Virus record (IMG/VR): IMGVR_UViG_3300037400_001181
Location: 1-39,253 of that record
Direction: 5' to 3' (one strand)
Origin: a virus
DNA: 39,253 nt
Shown here: positions 11,943 to 38,558 of the stretch, piece after piece
Numbering within the stretch: the stretch's first letter is position 1
Layout: the number at the start of each line of letters is the position of its first letter
Notes under the pieces: generated by a model
Seen by the model: only the letters and a program-made list of their open reading frames with translations
What the model was told of the DNA's origin: nothing
Database searches by the model: none
Program-made: the position numbers and the translations under genes

Positions 11943-14435
11943 TCAGACCACATCAAAGAGGCTAATATTATCCATGCTGGTATCCTCTTCCGCTGTCAGG
12001 TACCCAACGGCGTCCCGGTAATAGTCCGGGTTCAGTTCCGTCATGCAGCCCTGCCGCCCCATCCGGATTGCCACCAAGGGGACAGTCCCGATGCCGCCAA
12101 AGGGGTCATAAACCAAGTCCCCGGGGTTGGTATACCGGTTGATGAGCCGTTCCACCGTGTCCAGCTGTAACGGACAGACGTGCATCTGCTTCCGGCGGCG
12201 GCTCTGCTCCGTGTTCAGCGTGCGCATCCGGTTGATGTCGTCCCAGACGTCCATGTTCCAGCTGCCGGGCGCCACCACCATGAAGGTCGCTGGCAGACGC
12301 CCCTCTTCATCCAGCTTTTTTGCCAGGGCGACGTGTTCGGCATAGTCGTACACCGTGCCACGGCTGTGCTCCCGATAGGCCTTTTGCAGATTGCTCACCG
12401 GGATAGTCTCCAGCTCTTCTTTACTCACCAGCCTGTCGCCGCTGCTGCGCCAGTACCCATGGGCGTCCAGCTGCCACTGGGCACGAGTGTAGTCCTCTTT
12501 GGACTTGCGTACCGGATCATCTGCATACGCTTTCGAGCGGTTAGTGGGCAACTTCCGGAACAGCAGCACATATTCCGGGCAGCCCACGCCCATTTTTGTG
12601 CCGTCCTTGCACTGCTCCGTCCACCCCAGCCGGTAGGTCTGATTATTCTCCCGCACCACGTCGGTGATGATGGTGATCATGCCGAAGTAGGCGAACCCAT
12701 GCTTCATATAGTGCTGAATACACTGGGCGTGGAACGGCTCCATGGTAGGCATCCCCATGCCGGTCACGCTGCCGAACAGCACCCGGTCTTTGACGTGGAC
12801 GGCCATGACCCGCCCCGGCTTGAGGGTGCGCAGCAGGTGAGGTGTCAGGTAGTCCATCTGCTGGAAAAATCGGTTTGTGTCCTCGTTGTGCCCAAAATCG
12901 TTGTAGCTGGGTGTGTATTCGTAGTGATTGGAAAATGGGATAGATGTCAAGATCATATCCAGACTGTTCTCGCCCATCTTTGCGGTCTCCTCCACGCAGT
13001 CACCGTGAATGGCCGTCCAGTTCGTCCCTCGCTGTATCACGCTATCAACTCCTATGCTCCGCAGCATGGCCTGTTCCGCCGGAACACCGCCAATGCCGTA
13101 CTGCTTCAAAATCCCCTGCATCTTCTCCAGCAGGTATTCATGTTGCTTCCACTTTTCCATCAGCACCAGGTAGATGGCACTCTCTGCCTCCGTGTAGATC
13201 AGGTCGATGATGACCCGCTCCGTCTGCAAGAACCGGTAAATGCGGTGAATGGCCTGGATGAAGTCGTTGAACTCGTAGCTGATTCCTACGAAGATTGCCC
13301 GATGACAGTGGCGCTGGAAGTTACACCCGGAGCCGCTGAGGCTCTTCTTTGTGGCAAACAACCGGCATTCACCGTTGGCAAACTGCAACACCCGCTGTTC
13401 TCGCTTGTCGTAATCCATGGAACCGTAAATGTCCACCACACCGGGGATTGCCTTCTTGAGCGCGTGCCGTTCCGCCTCCAGGTCATGCCAGAGAATGAAA
13501 TGGGCATCTGGGTCGCTGGACACGATCTCCGCTGCCTTCGCTACTCTGGCGTCGATGCTCTCCCGCTTCTCCCGTGCTGCTTCCTTCAAGCTCATGGCCG
13601 TGTCACGATCCACCATGCGCTGACCGTCCGCTTCTTCCACCTGGTTATAATCGTGATAGATCACGTGAGTGCGGACTTCCAGTGGCGGCAGGTCATATCC
13701 CGCATCGTCATAGCCCAGGTCAGACGGTTTGGTGATGAACAACGCCCAGGTGCTCACCCACAGCCAAAATTCTTCTTCCTTGTGGGGATAAATCGTCAAG
13801 TTATTGGCTTTGGTGCTGTCGCGCTGGAAAAACCGGGTCAGTGCCTGTCCCGTGTCCATGATCTCCAGGTACCCAGCGTAGTGGATCAACTCTTTGTAGC
13901 GATTTGGGGACGGCGTGGCCGTGGAAACCAGCTTATACTTCACACCGCTGAACTTCTCCAGGAAGGTCTGATAGGTCTTGCTCCCAAACTCACGCAGCAC
14001 AGACGCTTCATCCAAGCTGGTGCAGCAGAAATACTGCGGGTCAATATCGCCGTCCCGCACCCGCTCATAGTTGGTCATCACCAGCGGCGCGCTGCACGCT
14101 TTGACTTCCGCCATGGTGCGCACATATACCGGCGGATCCATATGCAGCAGATCCTGAGCGTCTCGCACGAACTCCTGCCGGACGCCCAGCGGCAGCACCA
14201 GCAACGCCTGTCCACCCTCGTGACGCACTACCTGACGGCAAAATTCCAGCTCCTGCACTGTCTTGCCCAGGCCGAAGCTCTCAAACAGTGCCCGGCGTCC
14301 ACCATTCAGCGCCCAGCGAACAGCGTCTCTCTGGTGCGGCTTTAGAGCCGGGGATAAATCCTCGTCGGCGACCTCAAAGCCGCTGACCGGCGCTGTGACC
14401 ACCTTCGAGCGGAGGAAATCGAGATAGTCACCCAT
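11943..14435 (-). CDS. SNF2/SF2 helicase-like ATPase fused to a beta-class N6A/N4C DNA methyltransferase
   Basis: 830 aa. N-terminal half has FGLGKT (Walker A) and LDEAS (motif II). C-terminal half has TSIPF (motif IV) before DPFGGIGT (motif I). Confidence 0.85.
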   Translation of the reverse strand: MGDYLDFLRSKVVTAPVSGFEVADEDLSPALKPHQRDAVRWALNGGRRALFESFGLGKTVQELEFCRQVVRHEGGQALLVLPLGVRQEFVRDAQDLLHMDPPVYVRTMAEVKACSAPLVMTNYERVRDGDIDPQYFCCTSLDEASVLREFGSKTYQTFLEKFSGVKYKLVSTATPSPNRYKELIHYAGYLEIMDTGQALTRFFQRDSTKANNLTIYPHKEEEFWLWVSTWALFITKPSDLGYDDAGYDLPPLEVRTHVIYHDYNQVEEADGQRMVDRDTAMSLKEAAREKRESIDARVAKAAEIVSSDPDAHFILWHDLEAERHALKKAIPGVVDIYGSMDYDKREQRVLQFANGECRLFATKKSLSGSGCNFQRHCHRAIFVGISYEFNDFIQAIHRIYRFLQTERVIIDLIYTEAESAIYLVLMEKWKQHEYLLEKMQGILKQYGIGGVPAEQAMLRSIGVDSVIQRGTNWTAIHGDCVEETAKMGENSLDMILTSIPFSNHYEYTPSYNDFGHNEDTNRFFQQMDYLTPHLLRTLKPGRVMAVHVKDRVLFGSVTGMGMPTMEPFHAQCIQHYMKHGFAYFGMITIITDVVRENNQTYRLGWTEQCKDGTKMGVGCPEYVLLFRKLPTNRSKAYADDPVRKSKEDYTRAQWQLDAHGYWRSSGDRLVSKEELETIPVSNLQKAYREHSRGTVYDYAEHVALAKKLDEEGRLPATFMVVAPGSWNMDVWDDINRMRTLNTEQSRRRKQMHVCPLQLDTVERLINRYTNPGDLVYDPFGGIGTVPLVAIRMGRQGCMTELNPDYYRDAVGYLTAEEDTSMDNISLFDVV

Positions 14436-22271: not shown

Positions 22272-22354
22272 TGATTTTCTGCCTCCTTTGGTTTATACTG
22301 TAATTGGTCTTTTGCCTTTGCCGTCGTCGGAGTTGCCCCTCCGGCGGCGGCTTT

Positions 22355-23002
22355 TTACGTTCTGTGCGCCTCCAGCTCTGGCAGCACTGCGCAGAGCTTG
22401 TCCCAGTTTGCCTTGACCGCACCGGTCTCCCATAGCGATACAGTCGCCTGGGTCACTCCGACTATAGCTGCAAGCCCACTCTGGGTCATACCCTGGGCTT
22501 TGCGCGCCAGCGCAATGCATTTCTGCCCGGCGGCGACCTTGTCCTTGTTCGCCTCGTAGTACGCCTTCTGCCGGGCGGCGATCTTGTCCTTGTTCGCCTC
22601 GTACCACGCCTTCTGCTGGGCGGCGATCTTGTCCTTGTTCGCCTCGCGGTACGCCTTCTGCCGGGCGGCGATCTTGTCCTTGTTCGCCTCGTAGTACGCC
22701 TTCTGCCCGGCGGCGACCTTGTCCTTGTTCGCCTCGTAGTACGCCTTCTGCCGGGCGGCGATCTTGTCCTTGTTCGCCTCGCGCCACGCCTTCTGCCGGG
22801 CGGCGACCTTGTCCTTGTTCGCCTCGCGCCACGCCTTCTGCCGGGCGGCGACTGCTTTTTGTTTTGTCGTCTTTGGGTTGATGATGTCCTTGTCGATGAC
22901 GTCGAGCTCTTTGTGCTCATCCCATGTCAGAGCCGCCTCCAGGCACTCATCCGGCACATCGGGATAGGGGCACTCCAGGCAGTTGTAGTTGCACTCGATC
23001 AT
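22355..23002 (-). CDS. Cys-cluster + 7x 15-aa repeat + XRE-type HTH protein
   Basis: Start at ATG 23002 (8 nt after AGGAG); 23008 is also possible. MIECNYNCLECPYPD..., then repeats AARQKA[WY][RY]EANKDK[VI], then HTH MTQSGLAAIVGVTQATVSLWETG. Confidence 0.7.
   Translation of the reverse strand: MIECNYNCLECPYPDVPDECLEAALTWDEHKELDVIDKDIINPKTTKQKAVAARQKAWREANKDKVAARQKAWREANKDKIAARQKAYYEANKDKVAAGQKAYYEANKDKIAARQKAYREANKDKIAAQQKAWYEANKDKIAARQKAYYEANKDKVAAGQKCIALARKAQGMTQSGLAAIVGVTQATVSLWETGAVKANWDKLCAVLPELEAHRT
22520..22851. repeat. 45-bp tandem repeat, about 7.4 copies, in frame within the CDS
   Basis: Unit cttctgccgggcggcgatcttgtccttgttcgcctcg..acgc recurs at 22565, 22610, 22655, 22700, 22745, 22790 and 22835. 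Confidence 0.95.
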
Positions 23003-23013
23003 GTCCATCTCTC

Positions 23014-23322
23014 CTATCTTTGCGTAAGCTTGCTTGTCCTGCGGCGTCGCACGCTCCGGCACTGGCTGATGTTGTTGACATCATTGGCTATCCGCTCGCC
23101 CTCGCTGACCCTGGCCACCGCGATGAGCTTGGCGTACACCGCATAATGGGTGCAACTATCGTGGCAGGTGGCCGTCCTGCCGGTATCTGGCGTACAGCCC
23201 CAGCACGGTGCTGCCACCCGTCCCAGTCGATAGCAGACCGGACACAGCTCCGCCGCGCCGACCGTCACCAGGGTTTGGGTGTTCCATAGGCGCTGGCAGT
23301 GGGCGCAGGGTCTGCGGCTCAC
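23014..23322 (-). CDS. Cys-rich (CxxC pairs) small protein
   Basis: 102 aa with a GTG start in a GTGA overlap. CAHC, CPVC, CWGC and CHDSC motifs suggest a zinc ribbon. Confidence 0.4.
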   Translation of the reverse strand: MSRRPCAHCQRLWNTQTLVTVGAAELCPVCYRLGRVAAPCWGCTPDTGRTATCHDSCTHYAVYAKLIAVARVSEGERIANDVNNISQCRSVRRRRTSKLTQR

Positions 23323-24714: not shown

Positions 24715-25479
24715 TCAGCTGGCCAGCCCCTGGCACAGCAGGCGGAAGGTCTCTCTGCCCTTCGGCGTGACCAGCGTCTGGACGCCTGCCCACTGGGTTC
24801 TTTCGTTGACACATTCTTTCAACTCAAACAGGCCGTTGTTCTTGTTCTCGTAGGCCAGCAGCTTGCCTTTCTTATCCCGGTACAGGTACTTGTGCTCGAT
24901 GAGCCAGTTGACAAACTTCTTGGGCGGGATACCCAGCTGCTTTGCCGTCTCTCTGAAATTGGTCAGCAGGCCACGTTCAACCAGCTCATCGAAGTAGTCC
25001 GCCTTAGGCTGCAGGATTGCCTTGTCTACCGTCAGAGTGGCGTTGACGACCTCCAGCGCCTTGCGCTTATCCGTTTCTTCCTTCAAGGCAGTCACCACTT
25101 GAAGCAGGTAGTCCGGGTTGAGAATGGCCGCCTCCAACGTCTCCTGCGTCATGTAGGCTCCGGTCTTGCGGATGGACGGGATGACGTCATGCGTAATCCA
25201 GTGCTTAAACTCCTTCGCCCCAGGCAGTTTGCTGGAGAGGATAAGACAGTACAGGCCGGACTCGTTGATGATGGTCATATTGGGGTTGCCACGATTACCG
25301 TCGGGATTCACGACGGTATTCTTATCCTCCTTTTCGACATGGCGGTCGAGCGCGTCCCGGGTGTTGCTATACCCCAGCGCTTCCGCCACGTCCTTTCCAA
25401 CAAAACAAGGCTCGTTGTCGATCTCAATAGTTCTCACCTGACCAAAGGTCGGGTTCTCAAATACTTTCAGTTCGTTCAA
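24715..25479 (-). CDS. Antirepressor (Bro-N + KilA-C/ANT domains)
   Basis: 254 aa, TTG start 7 nt after AAGGAGG. FENPTFGQVRTIEIDNEPCFVGKDVAEALGY is Bro-N-like. The C-terminal half is KilAC-like. Confidence 0.85.
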   Translation of the reverse strand: MNELKVFENPTFGQVRTIEIDNEPCFVGKDVAEALGYSNTRDALDRHVEKEDKNTVVNPDGNRGNPNMTIINESGLYCLILSSKLPGAKEFKHWITHDVIPSIRKTGAYMTQETLEAAILNPDYLLQVVTALKEETDKRKALEVVNATLTVDKAILQPKADYFDELVERGLLTNFRETAKQLGIPPKKFVNWLIEHKYLYRDKKGKLLAYENKNNGLFELKECVNERTQWAGVQTLVTPKGRETFRLLCQGLAS

Positions 25480-27350: not shown

Positions 27351-28142
27351 ATGACATTATATGAACGAATTAGACATCGCCGCGAGCAGCTAGGCATATC
27401 CCAAGGGCAACTGGCAGAAGAACTAGGCTATACAAATCGCTCCACCATCGCAAAAATCGAATCGGGGAAGAACGACATTACCCAGTCAAAGATTGTTGCT
27501 TTTGCACACGCGCTATCTACGACCCCGCAGTATCTGATGGGCTGGACAGACGACCCCTACGACTACGACAACGACCCTAACGGGGTGCTGGCCAGTATAC
27601 CAAGCAACGTCCGCAAAGAACTGACCAAACTTCATCCGGATGACCCGGAGGCTGTTTGGCACGCCTGGGAAGCTATTATAAACGACCATGATGCGGGAGA
27701 CACATCCACCCCCACACCTCCTGAATACCGCTACGACAACATCTTCCCCATCACGACCAAGCGTGTGCCCTTTCTGGGCAGTATCGCCTGTGGCGAACCT
27801 GTTTTCGCAAACGAGGAACACGAGCTATATGTAGAGGTCGGCACCAATGTCCACGCCGATTTTTGTTTACAAGCTGCCGGTGACTCAATGATTGGGGCAA
27901 GGATACATGACGGCGACATCGTGTTCATCCGGAAGCAGGATATGGTGGACAACGGCGAAATCGCCGCCGTGATTATAGAGGACGAGGCAACCCTAAAACG
28001 TGTGAATTATTACCCTGACAAGAACCTGCTCATCCTACACGCCGAGAATCCCAGCTACAAAGACCTCATCTATACGGACGCTGAGCTTGACCAGATTGTC
28101 ATACTTGGCAAGGCGGTGGCGTTTCAAAGTGATGTGAGATAA
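27351..28142 (+). CDS. cI/LexA-type repressor (XRE HTH + S24 peptidase)
   Basis: 263 aa. HTH LGISQGQLAEELGYTNRSTIAKIESG; S24 motifs AAGDSM (Ser) and ATLKRV (Lys). Confidence 0.9.
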   Translation: MTLYERIRHRREQLGISQGQLAEELGYTNRSTIAKIESGKNDITQSKIVAFAHALSTTPQYLMGWTDDPYDYDNDPNGVLASIPSNVRKELTKLHPDDPEAVWHAWEAIINDHDAGDTSTPTPPEYRYDNIFPITTKRVPFLGSIACGEPVFANEEHELYVEVGTNVHADFCLQAAGDSMIGARIHDGDIVFIRKQDMVDNGEIAAVIIEDEATLKRVNYYPDKNLLILHAENPSYKDLIYTDAELDQIVILGKAVAFQSDVR

Positions 28143-29559: not shown

Positions 29560-29698
29560 CAAAAGATGCTACTGAGTAACATCACCCCGCCGGAATTACT
29601 ATCATTTCGGCGGGGTTGCCAAAATGATGATGAATGGCAAAAAACCGCCCCGGAGCCGGAACGCCAGGGCGGTTAAAAATAGAAAGGAGAAGGATAAA

Positions 29699-30871
29699 AT
29701 GGCAAAAAGAAAAGCCCCCAACGGGGCTGGGAGCATACGGAAGCGGTCAGATGGTCGCTGGGAGGGTCGGTACACTGCCGGATACGACGGCGGTACAGGG
29801 AAGCCCATCCGGCGCACGGTCTATGGCAGAACCCAGAAGGAAGTCAGGCAAAAGCTGACCGACGTCTCTCGGGCGTTGGACACCGGCACCTACCAAGAGC
29901 CGTCCTCTCTGACCGTGGCAGAATGGCTGGAAGAGTGGCTGACCGTATTCTGCGTGAACAAGGTAAAGCCCCTCACGATGACCAGCTATCGGGGTATCGC
30001 CAAGAACCACATCAATCCCAGGATTGGAGCCGTGCGGCTCCAGGACGTGCGGGGGACGCAGATACAAAGGCTGTACAACGATATGCTCCAGAATGGGTCA
30101 AGCCCCAAGACGATCAAGAATGTTGGAGCTGTCCTGCACAAGGCGTTCGCCGTGGCTCGAAAACAAGGCTATATCCAAATCAACCCCTGCGACAATGCGG
30201 AGCTGCCTAAGGTCGAGCGAAAAGAGATCAAGCCGCTGACCGAAGCTGACATCCCGCTGTTTCTCCGCGCCTGCTCTGGGTCGCCGATGGGCAACGCCTA
30301 TGCGCTCTGCCTGCTGGCTGGGTTGCGTGAGGGGGAGTGCATGGGGCTGGCCTGGGACGACGTAGACTTCGAGCGGGGACTCATCACCGTCCGCCAGCAG
30401 CTGCAAAAGCAGAAAGAGCGAGGCGGCACGTATTACATAGCGCCAACGAAGAGCAGTAAAATCCGTGTCGTCGCCCCACCCCCTATCGCCTTTGACTATC
30501 TCCGACTCGAGTGGGCAAAGCAAGCGCAAAACCAACTCAAGCACGGGGACGTTTGGGACAACCCATGGAACCTGGTGTTCACAAATGAAATCGGTGAGCA
30601 CTACAAAACTTTCACCTTCTACAGGCGCTTCAAGGCCATTGCCCAGGCGATTGGCAGGCCAGACGCCAGGCCACATGACCTGCGGCACACGGCGGCGACT
30701 GTGGCGATCGCGAACGGAGTTGATATTAAGAGCGTCCAGTCTATGCTAGGCCATGCGACGGCCTCCTTCACCTTGGATGTTTACGCCCATACTTCCCAAA
30801 AGATGATGGAAGCCAGCGCCGCAAAGGTGCAAGGCTTCTATGACAAGCTCAAAAATCAGAAAAGCGGCTAA
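29699..30871 (+). CDS. int: Tyrosine integrase with N-terminal arm-binding domain
   Basis: ATG at 29699 follows AAAGGAGAAGG. GSIRKRSDGRWEGRY is an arm-type DNA-binding domain. HDLRHTAAT and LGH...LDVYAH are catalytic motifs. Confidence 0.9.
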   Translation: MAKRKAPNGAGSIRKRSDGRWEGRYTAGYDGGTGKPIRRTVYGRTQKEVRQKLTDVSRALDTGTYQEPSSLTVAEWLEEWLTVFCVNKVKPLTMTSYRGIAKNHINPRIGAVRLQDVRGTQIQRLYNDMLQNGSSPKTIKNVGAVLHKAFAVARKQGYIQINPCDNAELPKVERKEIKPLTEADIPLFLRACSGSPMGNAYALCLLAGLREGECMGLAWDDVDFERGLITVRQQLQKQKERGGTYYIAPTKSSKIRVVAPPPIAFDYLRLEWAKQAQNQLKHGDVWDNPWNLVFTNEIGEHYKTFTFYRRFKAIAQAIGRPDARPHDLRHTAATVAIANGVDIKSVQSMLGHATASFTLDVYAHTSQKMMEASAAKVQGFYDKLKNQKSG

Positions 30872-35330: not shown

Positions 35331-38300
35331 TCAGACCCCCTTTGCAAACGCCAGCTGATTTTTCGTCTGACGGTAGATTTCCAGGCGGGAGAGCGCTTTC
35401 GGGCTGGTGTTATACTGGTAAAAGTTTTGGACAACTCCACCCCGTGTGGCCTGGGTTCCGCCGCCAGCGGAATGGGCGCTGATGGGACTTCCCACCACAA
35501 TGCCGCCAGATTCCGCCAGCAGGCTACTGCTGAGTTTGCGCATGGCCTTCTGCGCTACTTTGGTGTTCTTCTCAATGCCTTCGGCAATGCCCGGCGGCAG
35601 CCATTTGCCCACCTGGTCTCGCATGACTTTGGACGGAGAGTTGATGCCAAAAGCTTTTTTGAAGCCTTTGATGATACCGTTGCCGAACCCCATGATCTTA
35701 TCCTTGAGCCACCCAGCGGCCCCCTTGATACCGTTCCACAAGCCGTGTACAATGTCGCTGCCGATAGACAGAAGTTTTCCGGGCAAGCTCTTGATGCCGT
35801 TCACCACGGCGTTAAACATATTCTTCGCGCCCTCTTTGCCCTTCTTCCCCATATTCGACGCCCAACTTTTTACGTTGGAAATGATATTTTTTAGGAAGCC
35901 CATAACCCTACTGGGCAACGACTTAATACCATTGACAACATTGTTCAAAAAGTTCCGTCCAGCTTCCACGGCCTTGTTCTTCATGTTGATCGCCCAACTC
36001 GCCACGTTGCTAATGGCGTTTTTCAAGAAATTATAAATTTTCCCGGGAAGCTGCTTGAAGAAGTTGACCACGTTGGTGATGAAGTTTTTACCGGTTTCCT
36101 TCGCCTTTTGTTTCATGTTGCCAGCCCAGGCGGCAACATTGGTAATGGCGTTTTTTAAGAAATTATAAATTTTCCCTGGAAGCTGTTTGAAGAAGTTGAC
36201 AACGTTGGTGATGAAGTTTTTACCGGTTTCCTTCGCCTTGGTCCACATATCGACCGCCCATCGGGCAACCGTACCAATGGCAAAACCTAGCGCAAAACCA
36301 ATATTTTCAGGCAGGTTCTGAAAGAATGTACTAATGCCATCTAGGAAGTTTTTACCTGTCTCCACAGCCTTATCGCGCATATTGATCGCCCACTCACCGA
36401 TACCGGTTAGCACATTACCAATAAACTCACCAATACGCCCAGGGAGTTGCTGGAACCACTCGATCACACCGGAAACAAAGCCGCCCACAGCCTCTCTTGC
36501 GCTATTGAACGCGCCCGGAATGGTAACCGTAAAGAAGTTCACAATGCCGTTCCACACAGCAGAAAAAGCACCGCTGACCGTCTCCCACAACCCTATCCAG
36601 AAGTTGCGGAACGCTTCGGACTTGTTCCACAAAGTCACAAATGCGGCTACCAAACCAGCAATCGCCGCAACAATCAAGCCGATAGGGTTCAAACTCATTA
36701 CCGCATTTAAGGCGAGCTGCGCCACCTTCATCAGTTTTAGCGCTATCTCGCCGCTTTTGATTGCTGCTATAAAAGCTTGGATTTTCCCGACAGCAAAATA
36801 TGTCGCCATCGCTGTACCAATGCCAACAAACAACGGGATCCACGCTCGGAGCTTATCGGCCACCTCAGAAATAGCTTCTTTGATCGCCGGGATTTTCTCC
36901 ACAAACGCCTTCGCGAAATTCGCGATTGCAGGTGTAACCTGATCGACCAGCGGTTGCAAGAATTCAGCCTGCAACGCTCTGCCGATGGAGGAAATGGAGC
37001 TGCCAACGTCGGCGTATTTCACGTCATTCAGCTGTTTCATGGCGTCCGTGGTCGTTGCTGCTTCACCAGAAACATCCGTGAGTGCCTTGACACCGTCAAC
37101 GCCCAAGTCTTCCCACATGGTGCCAAATAAGTCTACCCCCGCCTGGTTCTGCTTGACCTGGTCGTCCATGCTGAATAGTGCTTTCAGCACTTTCTGTGTC
37201 GCATCCTGGGCAGTGTCACCGCCAGCAGCAAAGTCTTTTCGCATTTGGTCGGCGTTGAGCCCCAACAGTTGGAATCCCTCATCGGTGCTTTTCGCCATAT
37301 CCTTCGTACTGATGCCATATTCCTTCATGGCGTCGCCCAATTTATCGACGGAGAAAGTGCCTGACGCAGAGCCATTGATGAGGGAATTATAGAACTCATC
37401 AGCGGTATAGCCCTGCTGTTTGTAATGCACAGAATACTCGTTGATGGTATCCAGTAGGTCACCGTTCTTGTCCAGGCCATTCTGGGCACCTTTGACCACC
37501 AGGTTAAACGCCTGGTCAGACGTGATGCCGAACTGCTGCATGAGCATATTGACTGCCCGCATAGACTCGTTCAGGTCGAATCCGAAGGTGTCCCGCAAGG
37601 CAATACCATTCTCTGTCATCTTCTCCAGCTTTGACGGGTCGATCTCGCCGGTCTGCTGCTTCACTTGGGCCATCGCCTCGGCCACGTCCTGCATGGACTC
37701 GCCGAAGTTGTGGGAGTAGACCCGCTCGATGGAGTCAGAGAACTTCTCCATCTCTTTTGCGCTTGCCCCGGTCTGGGCCTGGAAGTTGGCGTTCGCCTCG
37801 GAGGACGCTGTTGCCAGGTCCTTGAATGCGTCCACGGCAGCTTTGATCCCGTTCGACACCAGCTCTGCAAGTGCGCCCTTCATGACGGTAAAGCCGCCGC
37901 TCGCATCCTCGGCGGCGTCGCCCACATCGTTCAGACTCTGGTCGAACTTATCCGCCGCACCCTCGGCGTCGCTCAGCTTGGACTGATTGTCCGCTAAGTC
38001 ACGAGACAGGGACGCGATCTCTTTTGCCAGCGTCCGGGCTTCCTTGGACGTCTCTCCCTGCTCCAGGACGACCTGGGCATACTGCGCCTTGAGCTTGGAC
38101 AGCTGTGCCTCCTGTCCGCCGATGACAGTTTGCAGGCTTTCCAGGGCGTTCTCCTCTTTCTGGGCAGATTTCGCCGCTTCCGCTTCCGCAGTCTGTACCT
38201 CGGCCAGGCGCGCGGAGTAATGCCGCATCTGCGCTTCTGTCTTCCCAATCTCACCCTTCAGGTTGTTGATACGGATGTACAGGTCTTGTGCGCCCTTGGA

Positions 38301-38558
38301 GTTCTCCCCCTCAGCGGCAACAACTTTGTCATACTCCGCTGTCAGCAGCGCCAGCTTCGCCTTTTGGGCGTCTTCCGTCGCATTCAACTGCTTGAGCTTG
38401 GCGCTCAAGCCCTCAGCAGATTCCGCCCACCGGTCCATGCCGCCGGTCGCCGCCTTAAATTCCGACGTGGCCACCTTCATGAGCTGGTTGGCCTGCTGCA
38501 TCCCCTTCTTCAGGTCAGTAATATCTACGCTAAATTTGGAAGTAAATTCTTCGGCCAC
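35331..38558 (-). CDS. Tape measure protein
   Basis: 1075 aa, GTG start 7 nt after AAGGTGG. Coiled-coil N-terminus, TM-like central segment, and 44-aa internal repeats. It follows the G/GT chaperone genes. Confidence 0.9.
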   Translation of the reverse strand: MAEEFTSKFSVDITDLKKGMQQANQLMKVATSEFKAATGGMDRWAESAEGLSAKLKQLNATEDAQKAKLALLTAEYDKVVAAEGENSKGAQDLYIRINNLKGEIGKTEAQMRHYSARLAEVQTAEAEAAKSAQKEENALESLQTVIGGQEAQLSKLKAQYAQVVLEQGETSKEARTLAKEIASLSRDLADNQSKLSDAEGAADKFDQSLNDVGDAAEDASGGFTVMKGALAELVSNGIKAAVDAFKDLATASSEANANFQAQTGASAKEMEKFSDSIERVYSHNFGESMQDVAEAMAQVKQQTGEIDPSKLEKMTENGIALRDTFGFDLNESMRAVNMLMQQFGITSDQAFNLVVKGAQNGLDKNGDLLDTINEYSVHYKQQGYTADEFYNSLINGSASGTFSVDKLGDAMKEYGISTKDMAKSTDEGFQLLGLNADQMRKDFAAGGDTAQDATQKVLKALFSMDDQVKQNQAGVDLFGTMWEDLGVDGVKALTDVSGEAATTTDAMKQLNDVKYADVGSSISSIGRALQAEFLQPLVDQVTPAIANFAKAFVEKIPAIKEAISEVADKLRAWIPLFVGIGTAMATYFAVGKIQAFIAAIKSGEIALKLMKVAQLALNAVMSLNPIGLIVAAIAGLVAAFVTLWNKSEAFRNFWIGLWETVSGAFSAVWNGIVNFFTVTIPGAFNSAREAVGGFVSGVIEWFQQLPGRIGEFIGNVLTGIGEWAINMRDKAVETGKNFLDGISTFFQNLPENIGFALGFAIGTVARWAVDMWTKAKETGKNFITNVVNFFKQLPGKIYNFLKNAITNVAAWAGNMKQKAKETGKNFITNVVNFFKQLPGKIYNFLKNAISNVASWAINMKNKAVEAGRNFLNNVVNGIKSLPSRVMGFLKNIISNVKSWASNMGKKGKEGAKNMFNAVVNGIKSLPGKLLSIGSDIVHGLWNGIKGAAGWLKDKIMGFGNGIIKGFKKAFGINSPSKVMRDQVGKWLPPGIAEGIEKNTKVAQKAMRKLSSSLLAESGGIVVGSPISAHSAGGGTQATRGGVVQNFYQYNTSPKALSRLEIYRQTKNQLAFAKGV
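36016..36240. repeat. 132-bp tandem duplication inside the tape measure gene
   Basis: Segments starting at 36016 and 36148 differ at about 4 positions over about 92 nt. They encode KETGKNFITNVVNFFKQLPGKIYNFLKNAI[TS]NVA[AS]WA. More diverged copies flank the pair. Confidence 0.85.

Follow-up and report, generated by a model that had tools for sequence, protein, structure and literature searches.

Transcription activator-like effector (TALE) repeats are two-helix hairpins of 33–35 residues that carry the repeat-variable di-residue (RVD) in a loop and together wind as a superhelix around DNA. Another arrangement is seen in phage proteins deposited in GenBank (Staphylococcus, Flavobacterium and Vibrio), where a zinc ribbon is followed by n copies of ‘K-x-Y-R-E-x-N-K-E-K-I’ and then by an HNH domain. 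Right-handed coiled coils can follow a 15/4 pentadecad periodicity (PMC4786415), polar cores are known in coiled coils (PMC13580157) and direct DNA repeats may lie inside the gene of a DNA-binding protein near replication genes (PMC6022878), as with the lambda origin within gene O. Here we compare with these systems a gene of a virus genome of 39,253 nucleotides (IMG/VR record IMGVR_UViG_3300037400_001181, positions 1–39,253, hereafter the window). The gene (22355..23002, minus strand; 215 codons plus stop, from the list of open reading frames (ORFs) and translation) encodes a Cys4 knuckle, a tandem repeat array and an XRE-type helix–turn–helix (HTH) domain. The original prediction, made from the letters alone, described seven near-identical 15-residue repeats and a partial AAGQK, and the translation gives exactly these units, in agreement with Tandem Repeats Finder (TRF); the Cys cluster (C4, C8, C11 and C20) is present, and the XRE-type HTH is backed by Pfam HTH_3 and Foldseek. 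We propose, with roughly even confidence, that the array is a recombination-prone basic helical arm or spacer of adjustable length, whose probable binding to nucleic acid involves no per-repeat code.

The seven complete units (22535..22849, minus strand; TRF, codon table and AlphaFold2 (AF2)), a copy number as assembled, follow the pattern A-A-[RGQ]-Q-K-A-[WY]-[RY]-E-A-N-K-D-K-[VI], and the partial eighth unit AAGQK (22520..22534, minus strand) continues straight into the first HTH helix through a junction, AA[QRW]QK[SC]IALARK, that is common to all orthologues. TRF reports a period of 45 bp with 7.4 copies, 92% matches and a score of 536 at 22521–22851, and an 18-nt core, GAGGCGAACAAGGACAAG, occurs seven times in the window, always within the array, against an average of 0.09 in shuffles. 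The claim that the 45-bp units are near-identical at synonymous sites holds: units differ at codons 3 (CGG/GGG/CAG), 7 (TGG/TAC), 8 (CGC/TAC) and 15 (GTC/ATC) alone, and none of the differences is synonymous. Codons 7–8 change as a contiguous 4-nt block, T[GG/AC][TA/CG]C, and read along the window’s array positions 7–8 are WR, WR, YY, YY, YR, WY and YY, a series unusually rich in the rare types. The same codons and the same alternative alleles recur in units across prophages. Between loci, differences per same-residue codon at synonymous sites amount to 0.095 in the repeats versus 0.073 in the flanking domains, and non-synonymous differences to 0.20 versus 0.048, the repeat figures comparing all unit pairs and hence including differences between paralogous units. 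On these values the repeats carry no extra DNA-level conservation, and the picture is of a young gene family with homogenised arrays. Diversity-generating retroelement (DGR)-type mutagenesis was considered and dropped, as the changes are not restricted to adenines and the annotated genes include no reverse transcriptase. Two alternative-frame ORFs, 22293–22832 (minus strand, 179 residues) and 22486–22920 (minus strand, 144 residues), traverse the array with RRP/GRR-rich translations; they are by-products of the repeat, not genes.

From a 35-sequence alignment, AF2 predicts an almost unbroken helix over residues 46–159 (predicted local distance difference test (pLDDT) 83–90, predicted template modelling score (pTM) 0.36), and the array contains no Gly or Pro breakers except an occasional G3. 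Roughly 47% of its residues are charged and 30% are Ala, the calculated net charge being −9 for residues 1–44, +15 for the array and +2 for the HTH. On a helical wheel drawn at 96 or 100 degrees per residue, the positions split cleanly into two halves: 7 and 8 fall in one with 3, 4, 14 and 15 and share it with the invariant N11 and K12; the other half holds A1, A2, K5, A6, E9, A10 and D13, with K5–E9–[DE]13 forming an i to i+4 ion-pair stripe. The helix is weakly amphipathic (hydrophobic moment 0.115 at 96 degrees, that is, 3.75 residues per turn), and two of the five positions along the seam 4, 7, 8, 11 and 15 are hydrophobic (Tyr/Trp-7 and Ile/Val-15). Helix rise is approximately 22.5 Å per unit, so that seven units (~105 residues) would extend for roughly 16 nm. 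The low moment, the lack of breakers and the continuous AF2 helix together favour a stiff, largely monomeric basic helix.

The unit represents one lineage within a very large repeat family, most other carriers of which have it between a zinc ribbon and an HNH, EndoVII or GIY-YIG nuclease domain. An array-only query of 1.84 billion representatives of 50%-identity clusters returned 12,026 matches at E ≤1e-3 (1,882 at E ≤1e-10 and 40 at E ≤1e-30), and PHROG 7091 and 17714 match the repeat with E = 4.8e-9 and 2.7e-8; PHROG families that cover the repeat are annotated HNH or have no function assigned. The original prediction had looked to profile searches for the identity of the unit: these identified the HTH and returned no curated model for the 15-residue unit, the full protein giving in Pfam and NCBIfam HTH models and low-complexity noise only (Glutenin_hmw, TolA and COA8), while no Pfam model covers the repeat in three phage HNH proteins that carry it. 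Architectures were counted in the best 150 representatives, which are those closest to the query and are biased towards Ala/Lys-rich units. Nuclease domains prevail here (Pfam: HNH 27, HNH_5 23, Endonuclease_7 9, HNH_4 7, GIY-YIG 6, T5orf172 and MUG113 2 each), with HTH_3 and HTH_31 in 6 each and one Helitron-like protein. In 48 of 142 members the array is immediately preceded by a double CxxC zinc ribbon, a Cys element of C-x3-C-x2-C type takes this place in four family members and the larger flank is C-terminal to the array in 100 of the 142. Nucleases that carry the repeat have no other recognisable DNA-binding domain. Since the repeat accompanies HNH, EndoVII and GIY-YIG enzymes and is strongly basic in the window (+15), a nucleic-acid-related role is plausible, and this part of the proposed ‘nucleic-acid-reading array’ survives; the other part, a per-repeat code, is without structural support. 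A GIY-YIG phylogenomics paper makes no mention of the repeat, and a search of the literature on intragenic tandem repeats in phages returned nothing relevant.

Across 767 family units a period of 15 dominates, with conserved N11 (the search anchor), K/R5, Y/W/H7, E9, K/R12 and E/D13. Position 8 is dimorphic throughout the family (R 322, Y 319); variability is greatest at positions 1–4, 6, 10, 14 and 15, and 7 and 8 are among the more constrained ([YW][RY]). The window’s array has the same period, K/R5, aromatic 7, E9, N11, K/R12, E/D13 and I/V/L15, and its protein has an N-terminal Cys4 element as in the family, presumably metal-binding, with an HTH where most others have a C-terminal nuclease. 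Judged by sequence, it belongs to a minority HTH branch of a family that has no Pfam or NCBIfam model, a branch that is extremely homogenised and polymorphic in copy number. Homogenised arrays from independent lineages (n = 14) differ internally at position 4 (0.60), 8 (0.50) and 3 (0.38), with all other positions ≤0.20, and position 8 is nearly always Y or R; their consensus units are distinct (AEKQRAY[YR]EANKDEI, AAEQRRY[YR]EANKDRI, AAYKKQY[YR]EENRESI and RAKKQDY[YR]xKNKDTI, among others). The idea of repeat-variable positions set in a constant unit thus generalises to 14 arrays, at 3, 4 and 8; its focus on 7 and 8 does not, as both are constrained family-wide. Because the same positions vary in independent lineages with a near-binary choice of residue, drift alone is an unlikely cause, and the pattern suggests that a ligand may read the face bearing positions 3, 4 and 8. 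A eukaryote-like Helitron_like_N protein (P0136, 1204 residues) has >20 copies of a related 15-residue repeat (RQAQYNDAHRETIAE / RQTTYNEENREAINQ), from which it follows that the module also travels with eukaryotic rolling-circle transposons.

Copy number and alleles were followed in the best 120 of 1,131 matches from a search of 5.8 billion protein clusters. These orthologues are mainly 140, 155, 170, 185 and 200 residues long, that is, they differ in 15-residue steps (the query has 215), and together with the query they hold 1–7 copies per protein, with a mode of 4; IMG/VR loci widen the range, with nine copies in one (L011) and one in another (L014). N- and C-terminal domains are almost invariant, and at least one unit is present in every orthologue and also in a diverged paralogue. 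Two prophages whose flanks are 96–98% identical to the window have three (L025) and four (L024) copies against its seven. Of the arrays in the 120 proteins, 101 are distinct, and identical multi-copy proteins were recovered on 14 and 18 independent contigs. The 215-residue paralogue (L009 7901–8548, also L010 2139–2786) lies in the same prophage as a three-copy orthologue and has the same CNHDCFNCPYPDVPSEC knuckle and HTH, with about seven degenerate, non-identical repeats; retention of the architecture with degenerate repeats indicates that the array is an old protein-level feature.

Entropy per position, from 447 units of the query and the 120 orthologues, is 1.61 bits at position 3 (Q/R/W), 1.07 at 4 (Q/K/R), 1.04 at 7 (Y/W), 1.11 at 8 (Y/R), 0.64 at 14 and 0.72 at 15, with all other positions at ≤0.2 bits. 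A single variable di-residue therefore describes these units in part: positions 7 and 8 do vary as a block and variation is not even over the unit, but 3 and 4 are equally variable and 14 and 15 vary too. At positions 7–8 the haplotypes YR (205) and WY (199) dominate the orthologue units, with YY (30) and WR (6) rare. Linkage between 7 and 8 is tight (Cramér V 0.86; 440 units from 120 orthologues), and all other pairs of variable sites have V ≤0.22. Linkage of adjacent codons alone, with sites ≥8 nt apart unlinked, is roughly what is predicted for shuffling by crossovers within units; the decay appears roughly compatible with such shuffling and is not rigorously separable from selection. A compensation between W3 and W7, leaving one Trp per unit, was dropped, the association being weak (Cramér V 0.14).

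On the reading that we favour, the gene product would be an early-operon DNA-binding protein in which a stiff basic α-helix, largely monomeric, joins an acidic Cys4 knuckle to an XRE HTH. The K5–E9–[DE]13 ladder probably stabilises this helix, and the opposite face, on which the aromatic residue 7, Asn-11, Lys-12 and Ile/Val-15 are conserved and 3, 4 and 8 are variable, would contact nucleic acid. The near-identity of the 45-bp units indicates that they are kept homogenised by out-of-register recombination or replication slippage; the same process would shift copy number in frame (1–9 among near-identical prophages) and generate chimeric units, so that a small stock of older alleles at positions 3, 4, 7/8, 14 and 15 is recombined. 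Binding by the array would be electrostatic, not one base per repeat, with copy number setting the reach of the arm and the HTH supplying sequence specificity.

Several points weigh against this proposal. A pure electrostatic spacer leaves unexplained both the strict Y/R dimorphism at position 8 and the recurrence of variable sites 3, 4 and 8 across lineages, and some selective read-out of these positions by a ligand is likely. Single helix and coiled coil cannot be told apart in the monomer AF2 model, no solved structure related to the repeat came out of a PDB sequence search, and motif and keyword searches of the literature gave neither a description of the repeat family nor an experiment on it. 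The exact seven-copy protein was not found in a collection of 15 billion proteins. The orthologue in the Oscillospiraceae metagenome-assembled genome (MAG) HGM13152 is split, with the contig ends CAADUV010000210 and CAADUV010000338 (L027 and L029) both inside the array; here the short-read assembly was broken by the repeat, whose 331-bp span in the window exceeds typical short reads. A bolder version, in which the unit is a widespread and unrecognised modular helix for nucleic-acid recognition, with positions 3, 4 and 8 (plus 7 in the window lineage) setting target preference or register and phages and homing nucleases retargeting themselves by recombining units, we hold to be very doubtful.

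Foremost among the alternatives is a right-handed pentadecad (15/4) coiled-coil stalk, dimeric or trimeric, in which the seam 4-7-8-11-15 would form a partly polar core and the number of copies would set the distance between paired HTH heads and Cys knuckles. A pentadecad is held together along its a/d/e/h/l seam, and with a placed at position 4 the variable and conserved positions 4, 7, 8, 11 and 15 coincide with exactly these registers; the period is 15, or 3.75 residues per turn, throughout the array; ‘coil containing protein’ is the annotation given to some Vibrio phage relatives; and XRE HTH proteins normally act as dimers, a habit that we count in favour. The 15-residue-period coiled coil that the original prediction had offered as an alternative thus keeps its geometry, and the chemistry is less favourable: the hydrophobic moment is weak, the seam is hydrophobic at Tyr/Trp-7 and Ile/Val-15 alone with K or R often at 4 and 8, Arg–Arg contacts would clash in a parallel homodimer, and chains with a net charge of +15 each would repel one another in the absence of a bound polyanion. 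We regard such a stalk as unlikely, although a minority prospect to be taken seriously. A quite unlikely explanation is that the array is a functionally neutral variable-number tandem repeat, a tolerated low-complexity linker whose variation is mutational noise and whose copy number is perhaps in part an assembly artefact. The missing seven-copy protein, the gene split in the MAG, the span of the array relative to short reads and a linkage pattern compatible with neutral shuffling all lean this way. Noise of this kind is hard to square with an array kept in every orthologue and in a diverged paralogue, with the same residues conserved across >12,000 clusters, with variation held to the same positions (and a Y/R dimorphism) in independent lineages, or with identical multi-copy proteins on 14 and 18 independent contigs.

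More doubtful still than modular recognition in general is a TALE- or PUF-like reader in which every unit would have its own base or short step to contact, with specificity encoded by positions 3, 4, 7 and 8. In PUF repeats the stacking is done by Tyr, Arg and His, which we treat as a lead only and not as a test. Within-array variation at 3, 4 and 8 in 14 independent arrays, near-binary at 8, the placement of 3, 4, 7 and 8 on one helix face with invariant N11 and K12 (window lineage), the 101 distinct arrays in 120 proteins and the fusion of the repeat to nucleases without another recognisable DNA-binding domain all accord with a reader. Its geometry does not: the predicted helix is continuous and without a turn, and a rise of ~22.5 Å per unit cannot follow a DNA groove. 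The TALE-like architecture of the original prediction is therefore not supported, as a 15-residue unit with no helix breaker gives in AF2 a continuous helix and not a helix–loop–helix solenoid, and 1–9 copies in near-identical phages fit a fixed target poorly. Its alphabets would be tiny (Y/R; W/Y; Q/R/W; Q/K/R), positions 7 and 8 are more conserved family-wide than most, and the linkage of sites is compatible with neutral shuffling. Almost no credence is given to the 45-bp repeats as iterons of a phage origin, or as another DNA-level site array, placed in the gene of their own binder. Near-identical direct repeats just upstream of recombination and replication genes, with no synonymous differences within the array, are what had made this attractive, and we reject it on the following grounds. 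This gene and its array precede unrelated modules in different prophages, homology ending right after the gene; synonymous divergence in the repeats does not fall below that of the flanks; the paralogue keeps the protein architecture with degenerate repeats, and the same peptide repeat is found in thousands of unrelated proteins; neither inverted repeats nor further copies of the 18-nt core occur elsewhere in the window; and a spacing of 45 bp, or 4.3 helical turns, puts the repeat sites out of helical phase. No Rfam family matched.

The genomic setting gives the same answer to the origin question. Between loci we find five different modules downstream of the gene: the window’s AAA_23/Sak4/primase; YqaJ/RecT/SSB/DnaB_2; Dam...PolA; AAA_23/RecT; and a truncated AAA_23 followed by Gp157/HNHc_6/SSB/IstB-like. 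BLAST alignments to four loci (L004, L008, L024 and L025) stop at window positions 22274–22319, just 3′ of the gene, so that, contrary to the view that it opens the recombination/replication module, the gene closes an upstream conserved block, which in other prophages reads [117 aa][68 aa][102–105 aa Cys-rich][repeat gene]. In the window a Cys-rich ORF of 102 residues with several CxxC pairs (23014..23322, minus strand) lies directly upstream of the repeat gene, and a 102–105-residue counterpart takes the same place in L004, L005, L006, L007, L008, L024, L025 and L026; the exact 102-residue sequence recurs on 23 public contigs, matches no family in Pfam or PHROG and may be that of a partner of the repeat protein. 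Immediately 3′ of the repeat gene is a G+C-rich hairpin followed by TTTTT (22320..22351, plus strand; terminator-like scan; 13-pair stem with 10 G–C pairs), antisense to the early operon and at or beside the mosaic junction where prophage similarity ends. At L005 7170–7979, in one prophage, a copy-like set of the small ORFs usually found ahead of the repeat gene (101, 69 and 105 residues) recurs downstream of it, past a truncated AAA_23 gene of 156 residues, which suggests a local duplication or recombination scar at the junction.

All 120 orthologues begin MIEC or MVEC, and the ATG at 23002 is for this reason the right start. The N-terminal Cys4 knuckle (residues 1–20; 22943..23002, minus strand) has the form C-x3-C-x2-C-P-Y-P-D-x4-C and is a presumed metal binder; an alignment of 35 sequences shows no change at C4, C8, C11, P12, Y13, P14, D15 or C20, a variant C-[ND]-x-[DN]-C-x2-C-x-[YF]-x-D-C is found in the distant HTH-type relatives P0137, P0165, P0177 and P0245, no Pfam or NCBIfam family matched it in a profile search with the full protein, and AF2 pLDDT over it is <50. 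An acidic helical segment (residues 21–44, LEAALTWDEHKELDVIDKDIINPK; 22871..22942, minus strand) follows, with an AF2 helix at 27–41, and is nearly invariant among orthologues. The XRE/Cro-type HTH (residues 162–215; 22358..22519, minus strand; Pfam HTH_3, Foldseek) matches HTH_3 (PF01381) over residues 163–194 with E = 1.6e-7 (31.6 bits against a 23-bit cut-off). Its AF2 model has the five-helix Cro/cI-like fold and resembles C.BclI, C.AhdI, HipB, P22 C2 and 434 Cro (Foldseek against PDB; target-normalised template modelling (TM) score 0.6–0.75, root-mean-square deviation 1.4–2 Å), this being the only part of the model with structural matches. A PDB sequence search with the full protein gave weak HTH matches, and its colicin and uL10 matches to the repeat are spurious. 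MqsA antitoxin (TIGR03830/PF15731) was ruled out, with 30.2 bits against 61.8 and 16.1 against 30, and with only the HTH and linker aligned.

The window is the genome of a temperate siphovirus with a gut Oscillospiraceae host; its related loci were found in metagenomes of the human gut and in MAGs of Oscillospiraceae, and the closest cultured relative is Faecalibacterium phage FP_Lugh (74% nucleotide identity, in the primase only). We identified an integrase (29624–30871, plus strand), a CI/S24 repressor (27351–28142, plus strand), Ant (24715–25479, minus strand), an HTH_17 protein, several small ORFs, an AAA_23/SbcC-like ATPase, Sak4, helicases, a primase, the terminase large subunit (TerL), the major head protein, the tape-measure protein and an endolysin. 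The tape-measure ORF (35331–38558, minus strand) contains a 132-bp tandem duplication (35980–36269; 2.0 copies, 87–89% matches), in frame and corresponding to 44 residues. ORF 11943–14435 (minus strand, 830 residues) has SNF2/DEAD-type helicase PHROG matches throughout and a C-terminal N6_N4 DNA methyltransferase domain, and looks like a helicase–methylase fusion in the replication module.

The repeat sits where homing-type nucleases normally carry DNA-binding or distance-setting modules, and its role, once worked out, would annotate thousands of phage and mobile-element proteins. An array of 1–9 units, in 101 versions among 120 proteins and on a near-constant background, is a natural series for distinguishing a ruler from a DNA clamp or a reader, and the feature would become far more interesting should nucleic-acid specificity turn out to lie in the variable face. 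In practice, the array breaks or collapses short-read assemblies, and it is a possible strain marker for prophages of gut Oscillospiraceae.

Set beside the described systems, the gene shares with lambda-ori-like iterons direct repeats inside a DNA-binding protein gene close to replication genes, but its array is tied to no single replication module, is conserved as a peptide and is out of helical phase. Pentadecad coiled coils, as in trimeric autotransporter adhesin stalks, have the same 15-residue period, with a seam i, i+3, i+4, i+7, i+11 that here carries both conserved and variable residues; unlike in those stalks, the moment is low, polar or basic residues make up most of the seam and net charge is high. 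With single α-helix (SAH) domains the K5–E9–D13 stripe, the charge content and the confident AF2 helix are compatible, although the net charge is strongly positive, unlike that of typical SAHs. TALE arrays similarly consist of near-identical units that differ at few fixed positions and change in number and order between close relatives; here, however, 15-residue units lie in one continuous predicted helix without loops, four to six positions vary and not two, and there is no sequence similarity. MqsA-type and XRE regulators with an N-terminal zinc module offer a Cys4 module, a linker and a C-terminal XRE HTH, and weak matches of MqsA models over the HTH, but the window protein lacks a CxxCG motif and an adjacent toxin gene, and its linker is a repeat helix of 105 residues. 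Phage and mobile-element zinc ribbon-repeat-nucleases (PHROG 7091 ‘HNH endonuclease’, PHROG 17714, Staphylococcus phage f2b1 QIA28523.1 and Flavobacterium phage QMP84897.1) have the same unit, with K5, Y/W7, R/Y8, E9, N11, K12, E/D13 and I/V15. The window protein departs from them in its XRE HTH effector (an HTH being present in just 6 of the 150 best representatives), in a C-x3-C-x2-C-P-Y-P-D...C knuckle in place of a CxxC...CxxC ribbon and in far more homogenised units, and it shares with them an N-terminal Cys4 element, a variable number of copies and an array placed before a C-terminal effector.

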